Source of the DNA: Flectonema sp. DT1601
Taxonomy: Eukaryota
Reading direction: 5' to 3'
DNA length: 64,000 nucleotides
Assembly (NCBI GenBank): GCA_964019425.1
Contig: OZ025789.1
Location: 558,001 to 622,000, forward strand
Shown here: positions 25,219 to 25,516 of the stretch, one piece after another
Layout of the letters: each line of letters starts with the position of its first letter
Numbering within the stretch: the stretch's first letter is position 1
Notes under the pieces: model-generated
Told to the model about the DNA's origin: nothing
Databases searched by the model: none
Seen by the model: the letters and a program-made list of their open reading frames with translations, nothing else
Program-made: the position numbers and the translations under genes

Positions 25219-25318
25219 CTCAGATTTTGGATCTAATCTGTTATCTGTTGATTTTCTTTGTTGTCCTTTTTTGTTGTCGGATTTGCCTGCACTTTTTCTA
25301 ACTAACTTCAGGGTTTTG

Positions 25319-25497
25319 ACACCGCAGTGTCCCCCTTACTTTCTTCGCTGAAGAGGGCTGGGTAAGGGGAATGGTCCGAAGAAAGATTTTTTAATTTTAG
25401 CCCGAAACCAACCATTATTTGTTTGTTGTCCTACGAACTTTTGCATTCGATTGAATTTTCCCGCCCCCTCCCCTTCTTTTGACTGATAACCATTAAT
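25319..25497 (+). mobile_element. Short dispersed SINE/retrozyme-like element, copy 1, with exact 18-bp target-site duplication
   Basis: actaacttcagggttttg occurs at both 25301-25318 and 25498-25515. Other array spacers carry a single uninterrupted version of the site (near 18668 and 23276). A second copy of the element lies at 45312-45461. Confidence 0.82.
25332..25410 (+). ncRNA. Candidate hammerhead ribozyme, non-circularly permuted topology
   Basis: Core CTGAAGA 25348-25354, GAAA 25404-25407, GTC 25374-25376. Stem I ctttcttcg/cgaagaaag (9 bp), stem II gggctgg/ttagccc, stem III cca/tgg plus the core A-U pair, and an extra helix ccccttac/gtaagggg. Confidence 0.72.
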
Positions 25498-25516
25498 ACT
25501 AACTTCAGGGTTTTGT

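Follow-up and report, generated by a model that had tools for sequence, protein, structure and literature searches.

A predicted type-CSG hammerhead ribozyme in a short, non-coding retro-insert of a diplonemid genome

The last spacer of a seven-copy gene array in a diplonemid genome holds a short retro-insert that carries a predicted type-CSG (non-circularly permuted) hammerhead, a fold that is very probably real. The insert is present twice in the window, the whole 64-kb stretch of DNA analysed here, and both copies are intergenic and lie in sense to a unidirectional gene cluster. By analogy with known mobile elements, it is reasonably likely to come from a Penelope-like retroelement of the Naiad/Chlamys kind, either as the end-piece that bears the ribozyme or as a non-autonomous derivative.

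Judged by its sequences, the host is a diplonemid, a marine protist. The DBP9 helicase encoded in the window has its closest labelled relatives in Rhynchopus euleeides (54%), Diplonema papillatum (49%) and Artemidia motanka (48%), with the best named matches outside diplonemids at about 36-42%. The genes of the window are long, mostly intron-free, all on the + strand and separated by T-rich spacers; in D. papillatum, according to the sections of the genome paper used here, genes form unidirectional clusters that are likely co-transcribed and trans-spliced (PMC10161547). The array (14745-24134) consists of seven tandem genes for a protein of 151-153 residues with a hydrophobic N-terminus, and two spacer types alternate between them. 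This protein has no Pfam match, and an ESM Atlas hit at 0.88 to mannose-6-phosphate-receptor repeat domains is a lead only. The spacer that holds copy 1 contains three insertions in all, the other two being MITE-like: an inverted-repeat insert at 24797-25061 (arms of 38 nt at 79%), absent from three aligned sister spacers, and an element at 25070-25236 (arms of 17 nt at 94%) that encloses a palindrome of 23 nt. Intergenic tandem repeats are found at 6839-7143 (131 bp x 2) and 32569-32683 (36 bp x 3.2). The window also includes an intron-free gene of the Asp/Glu racemase family (2736-3434; PF01177, E 2e-39). Genes of this family are common in bacteria, and horizontal acquisition is possible.

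Copy 1 ends in TTAAT and is bounded by the direct repeat ACTAACTTCAGGGTTTTG, which is exact over 18 bp, as the earlier note had reported, and cannot be extended on either side. Three sister spacers carry the corresponding site as a single stretch without insert, matching the repeat at 16 of 18 bases (23276) or at 15 of 18 (18667 and 20355), and the repeat of copy 1 is therefore duplicated host sequence. The earlier note was right that such sites are single and uninterrupted, although it placed one at 18668 instead of 18667 and missed that at 20355. Three further spacers (15583, 16902 and 21615) diverge after the first 7 bases of the repeat and match it at 9 of 18 overall. The insert, its target-site duplications (TSDs), the empty sites and the second copy are located as follows.

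25301..25318, + strand: left TSD of copy 1, 18 bp, an exact repeat that is single in sister spacers
25319..25497, + strand: copy 1 insert, 179 bp, non-coding
25483..25497, + strand: 3' terminal motif common to both copies, resembling the copy-2 target
25498..25515, + strand: right TSD of copy 1
18667..18686, + strand: empty site in a sister spacer, 15/18
20355..20374, + strand: empty site in a sister spacer, 15/18
23276..23293, + strand: empty site in a sister spacer, 16/18
45296..45311, + strand: left flanking repeat of copy 2, 16 bp, 14 identical
45312..45461, + strand: copy 2 insert
45462..45477, + strand: right flanking repeat of copy 2

A search with nhmmer finds these two copies of the insert in the 64-kb window. 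Copy 2 (about 45309/45312-45461, + strand) is 88% identical to copy 1 (BLASTN E 7e-42), starts within 2 bases of the 5' start of copy 1 and shares its TTAAT end. The flanks of copy 2, AGTAACCATTAGACAA and AGTAACTATTGGACAA, agree at 14 of 16 positions. With the boundary fixed, an equally good repeat is found at 49 of 19,284 intergenic positions, one of the 49 not being low-complexity, and with a loose search box at about 19 of 400; the repeat is probably an aged TSD, with terminal redundancy as the alternative. Variable-length TSDs (18 exact; 14/16) together with empty sites are what target-primed retro-insertion leaves, and the insert is a real retro-insert. Its description as a repeated, TSD-flanked, non-coding unit with recurring ends holds for copy 2, which has the same ends and the 14/16 flanking repeat.

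The composition of the insert narrows its identity. The longest stop-free frame of copy 1 is 53 codons, consistent with a non-coding element, and its longest A-run on the + strand is 3; the absence of an ORF, of terminal inverted repeats and of poly(A), and the TTAAT end, all claimed earlier, are confirmed. A and B boxes, terminal inverted repeats, an A tail and a tRNA were sought in the insert, and none was found. The earlier suggestion of a SINE does not survive, since a Pol III SINE would have a tRNA, 5S or 7SL head, A and B boxes and an A tail, all missing here. A MITE is rejected for want of terminal inverted repeats, and a retroposon of the ingi/RIME/SIDER type because the element has no Rfam match and no poly(A) (longest A-run 3-4).

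The predicted ribozyme is built from three blocks in the order C-S-G. In copy 1, stem II, of 5 bp, links CUGAAGA to GAAA, and its two strands stand 39 nt apart; a GUC in this interval gives a stem I of 9 bp (or 6) and a stem III of 4 bp, all Watson-Crick. In both copies, a 10-bp joining helix connects the end of stem II with the base of stem I and is followed by an AA linker. The core (CUGAnGA, GAAA, UH and the A15.1-U16.1 pair) is present in both copies, as are the C-S-G order and stems I, II and III; in copy 2 the first stem II pair is an A-C mismatch. When the cleavage block is tried at every position within 200 nt, the C-S-G order alone passes the stem filter, in either copy. The parts of the ribozyme and of its 5' flank are listed below.

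25318..25331, + strand: 5' hairpin, 5 bp with a 4-nt loop, from sequence and the minimum-free-energy (MFE) fold; its first G is the last target base, a possible 5' microhomology
25332..25341, + strand: segment between the 5' hairpin and block C
25342..25359, + strand: block C, with the stem I 5' strand (25342-25347, extendable to 25339), CUGAAGA (25348-25354) and the stem II 5' strand (25355-25359)
25360..25371, + strand: joining helix 3' strand and 2-nt AA linker, laid out as in the published type-CSG alignment
25372..25385, + strand: block S, with the stem III 3' strand (25372-25375), C17 of the GUC (25376, predicted cut after it) and the stem I 3' strand (25377-25385)
25399..25410, + strand: block G, with the stem II 3' strand (25399-25403), GAAA (25404-25407) and the stem III 5' strand (25407-25410)
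45312..45461, + strand: copy 2, with C3 of the ribozyme at 45338, the predicted cut after 45366 and G12 at 45396

Several observations bear on whether this fold is real. Firstly, copy 1 scores 26, whereas the 11 candidates from 150 simulated third-order Markov windows of 64 kb reach 17.5 at most; both strands of these windows were searched with the same scorer, which was written after the element had been seen and counts a few bases in two helices. Secondly, the structured positions are better conserved than the rest: 64 of 66 are identical between the copies, compared with 71 of the 83 other aligned positions (Fisher p 0.015). One of the two structured changes keeps its pair (A-U to G-U) and the other breaks it; no two-sided compensatory change is found between the two copies, the only ones compared, and covariation is seen only across unrelated carriers of the fold. 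Rfam gives no match at the gathering score in the window and none on the element at E up to 10; five weak matches lie within 17-27 kb, none of them on the element. The nested MFE fold is no better than that of shuffled sequences (z 0.33 and 0.19), which is uninformative for a pseudoknotted RNA; the ribozyme is visible only with pseudoknots allowed. An alternative hairpin in the nested fold sequesters CUGA and counts against the ribozyme.

Other ribozyme readings fare worse. The earlier note had the hammerhead core right, and what fails, on stem pairing, is the conventional type I arrangement, in favour of type CSG: with a second GUC at 25430, stem I has 5-6 of 10 pairs and is broken from its second position, and stem III has 2 bp. 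That second GUC lies in an 18-19-nt block 3' of the ribozyme that is identical in both copies (25420-25437 and 45406-45423) and for which the 5' flank of copy 2 offers a possible pairing partner. An HDV-like ribozyme was rejected by eye, there being no upstream P1 partner and no catalytic C in the expected place. As modelled, copy 1 is fairly likely to cleave after 25376, and cleavage of copy 2 is probably impaired by comparison, its stem II mismatch being in line with its aged duplication.

Type CSG was introduced by Eckert et al. (2023) for two unique soil-metagenome DNA sequences whose host and element are unknown; both RNAs cleave in vitro, at 0.004 and 0.026 per minute, and in the parts of that paper used here the set shows modest covariation and has no biological context (PMC10085705). 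The diplonemid ribozyme agrees with the described set in its C-S-G order, all core bases, the 6-bp stem I, the 5-bp stem II and the GUC site, and in a joining helix that directly follows stem II and a 2-nt linker to stem III. Unlike the set described there, it is an insert in a eukaryote genome within a TSD-flanked repeat; its stem sequences are different, its stem III is 4 bp, its stem I-II linker is longer and its cleavage is predicted.

Pattern scans for further carriers, whose reach may be limited since both published CSG contigs fit the pattern yet are absent from the returned matches, gave 24 matches in metagenome contigs, with one strong CSG fold (L001, score 25.5), two weak ones (L009, 18; L015, 16) and 21 without. 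Prokaryote genomes gave nine matches with one weak fold (L026, score 15), and three viral contig scans gave 0, 0 and 9 matches, none of them CSG. L009:2145-2203 (- strand) is probably a chance match, because the locus was preselected by the core pattern and its score of 18 is just above the simulated maximum. No homology to the element was found among the first 33 loci, the set that this search covered, L034-L042 lying outside it. The strong carrier, L001:897-986, is an unrelated CSG fold with a joining helix of 10 bp, stem II of 5, stem III of 6 and stem I of 5/6. It lies on an AT-rich metagenome contig, where an extra 9-bp helix encloses the ribozyme and a long hairpin stands just upstream; five frames of the contig have no Pfam match, and MAFFT did not place it in structural register with the element.

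The closest parallel among mobile elements comes from Naiads, a group of Penelope-like elements that Craig et al. (2021) describe, in the passages used here, as without canonical hammerheads, while flagging in some families two core halves ('half core') 35-50 nt apart (PMC8557442). In passages of their consensus file (File S5, PMC8557442), inspected by eye and outside the scorer, six of eight nematode Naiad consensi fold as CSG in the 3' UTR. These folds differ in sequence in all four helices, yet are perfect by eye, with the following helix lengths.

Naiad_Parc: joining helix 7+ bp, stem I 6 bp, stem II 5 bp, stem III 12 bp
Naiad-1_Nbra: joining helix 10 bp, stem I 5 bp, stem II 5 bp, stem III 11 bp
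Naiad-2_Nbra: joining helix 12 bp, stem I 5 bp, stem II 5 bp, stem III 6 bp
Naiad-3_Nbra: joining helix 9 bp, stem I 5 bp, stem II 4 bp, stem III 6 bp
Naiad_Hcon: joining helix 12+ bp, stem I 6 bp, stem II 5 bp, stem III 10 bp
Naiad_Hpol: joining helix 16 bp, stem I 5 bp, stem II 5 bp, stem III 7 bp

No CSG fold was seen by eye in the viewed ends of the nematode Ppac and Asuum consensi or of five non-nematode Naiads, and the 'half core' matches near the spider and ostracod Naiads, also inspected by eye, did not fold as CSG. The window element shares with Naiads the same fold near its 3' end, the distance from GAAA to that end being 90 nt in copy 1 and 62 nt in copy 2, and as far as these passages reach the likeness is one of fold, not of sequence. 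Naiads as described there are 3.3-4.8 kb long, encode GIY-YIG and reverse transcriptase (RT) domains, have animals as their known hosts and frequently insert at (TA)n, whereas the window element, which lies in a diplonemid, measures 150-179 bp, is non-coding and has no partial tandem. Naiad insertions are often 5'-truncated (PMC8557442, in part).

Other Penelope hallmarks were sought in the window. None of 82 intergenic frames matches an RT or GIY-YIG family in Pfam, the searched set comprising 87 frames, namely 82 of 90 filtered intergenic frames and the five from L001. A partial tandem (pLTR), an inverted 5' copy and a 30-40 bp tail are absent at both copies; a stretch preceding copy 2 looks tail-like, but not significantly so, 22 to 224 of 1,652 control stretches scoring as well and nhmmer giving no match. 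Solo Penelope-type pieces likewise lack the pLTR, the inverted 5' copy and the tail. In the sections of the two papers used here, metazoan Penelope hammerheads are mostly single dispersed motifs, probably from truncated copies (PMC4209133), and hammerhead mutants of Poseidon from Anolis insert normally in vitro, uncut RNA being the main substrate (PMC11167929). The window element resembles such truncated elements in its short solo ribozyme pieces, probable insertion from uncut RNA and AT-rich targets; unlike their minimal type I motifs, its predicted ribozyme is a complete double-pseudoknot monomer. No report of a Penelope element in Euglenozoa was found in the literature searched. On the analogy with Naiads, the balance tips towards a partner element of Penelope type.

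We propose an insertion route on this basis. The partner endonuclease would nick a preferred site, CTR^ASTAAC, present in both targets. The partner RT would then start at the TTAAT end, copy uncut or re-joined RNA through the ribozyme and stop at, or run off, the small hairpin 13 nt before it, where 1-5 target bases match the 5' end of the element; a second nick 16-18 nt away would produce the duplication. The targets agree at seven of nine bases around the first nick, a level of match that 32 of 24,429 intergenic 9-mers reach; apart from copy 2, the window has CTR^ASTAAC at the seven homologous spacers and nowhere else. This hints at a target preference, for a motif drawn from these two sites only. 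Over 13 bases, the 3' end of the element is also similar to the target of copy 2; self-targeting, or a target captured long ago, may account for this. At the other junction, the 5' hairpin of the element is completed by the final 1-5 bases of the target. Such overlap is expected for microhomology-primed second strands.

Since both copies retain sequence on either side of the predicted cut, including 55-58 nt 5' of it, the RNA that served as template was uncut, re-joined or circular. Under the CSG layout, stems I, II and III would keep the cleavage products paired, which would favour re-joining. Because both copies are sense and intergenic, cleavage of read-through RNA would fall between genes, and the host probably tolerates this. 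A bolder version, which we hold tentatively and at rather less than even expectation, makes CSG hammerheads the working ribozyme of one branch within the Naiad/Chlamys-type Penelope elements, extending from nematodes to Euglenozoa, and the diplonemid insert a true non-autonomous family with a sequence-specific target; the double pseudoknot would hold the cut halves by three helices for re-joining or for copying as one template, which would explain the survival of an internal cut.

The partner could be of another kind. It is unlikely, though worth weighing, that no Penelope partner was involved and that an ordinary non-LTR retrotransposon resident in the host (L1, ingi, CRE/SLACS, R2 or RTE type) mobilised the ribozyme-bearing insert in trans. 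Duplications varying from 16 to 18 bp fit any target-primed enzyme, the 82 intergenic frames contain no RT match, and LINE-1, SLACS, R2 and jockey-like RTs are reported for D. papillatum, with no mention of Penelope in the main text or seven supplementary files of its paper (PMC10161547). Trypanosomatids have short non-autonomous ingi derivatives, and in the sections used here (PMC12278014) RIME, NARTc and SIDER share with the window element a euglenozoan host, small size, a ribozyme and target duplications. They differ from it in what ingi elements also carry, a 77-nt signature at the 5' end, which has HDV-like ribozyme activity, together with a poly(A) tail (PMC12278014); the insert has neither, nor any other Rfam match. 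LINE ribozymes, as described in part of that literature, process the 5' end, and the cut here would lie 58 nt inside. Naiads are also the only mobile elements in which the CSG fold was seen.

A retrozyme-like cycle is somewhat more doubtful still. A tandem master would yield cut-to-cut monomers that circularise, the copies would be one-unit cDNAs, with terminal redundancy as the source of the 16-bp repeat at copy 2. The element is non-coding, hammerhead-bearing and of the size of animal non-LTR retrozyme units (about 150-300 bp), among which monomers are common and for which Penelope dependence has been proposed (PMC7761336 and bioRxiv 10.64898/2026.07.22.740005, both in part). A circle would explain the sequence kept 5' of the cut, and the end of the copy-2 repeat continues the 5' hairpin of the element. 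Each copy has one ribozyme, however, with no tandem unit in the window; both open at the same point, and the copy-1 repeat is host sequence by the empty sites. The earlier proposal of a retrozyme fails in its published sense, since the parts of those two papers used here define non-LTR retrozymes by tandem type I units and circular RNA, and classical ones by tandem units with type I/III ribozymes; the copies here are solo and of type CSG.

An origin without retrotransposition, by capture or duplication of DNA at staggered breaks and with a hammerhead that is dead or due to chance, is very improbable: two copies only are seen and the copy-1 spacer is insertion-prone, with two inverted-repeat elements just upstream, but the two copies, which are dispersed, have both ends in common and a flanking repeat each, there are no terminal inverted repeats, and the fold scores above all 150 simulated windows and is the most conserved part.

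Read as a piece or derivative of a Naiad/Chlamys-kind element, the insert gives the type-CSG hammerhead its first named host group and a mobile-element setting. A search of print, with subscription literature mostly outside it, found no hammerhead-bearing diplonemid retrotransposon and no CSG fold in Naiads. The 35-50 nt of the 'half core' is the spacing of CSG core halves (49 nt in copy 1, 40 nt in L001), which suggests that the hammerhead absence reported for Naiads, in the passages cited, is partly a blind spot of descriptors allowing circular permutations only. That source also treats as open what hammerheads do in Penelope elements (PMC8557442, in part), and a monomeric ribozyme that is complete within a unit of 179 nt lends itself to testing. 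Our guess is that the soil CSG sequences of Eckert et al. derive from Naiad-like elements. If the partner is confirmed, endonuclease-bearing Penelope elements would extend to diplonemids.
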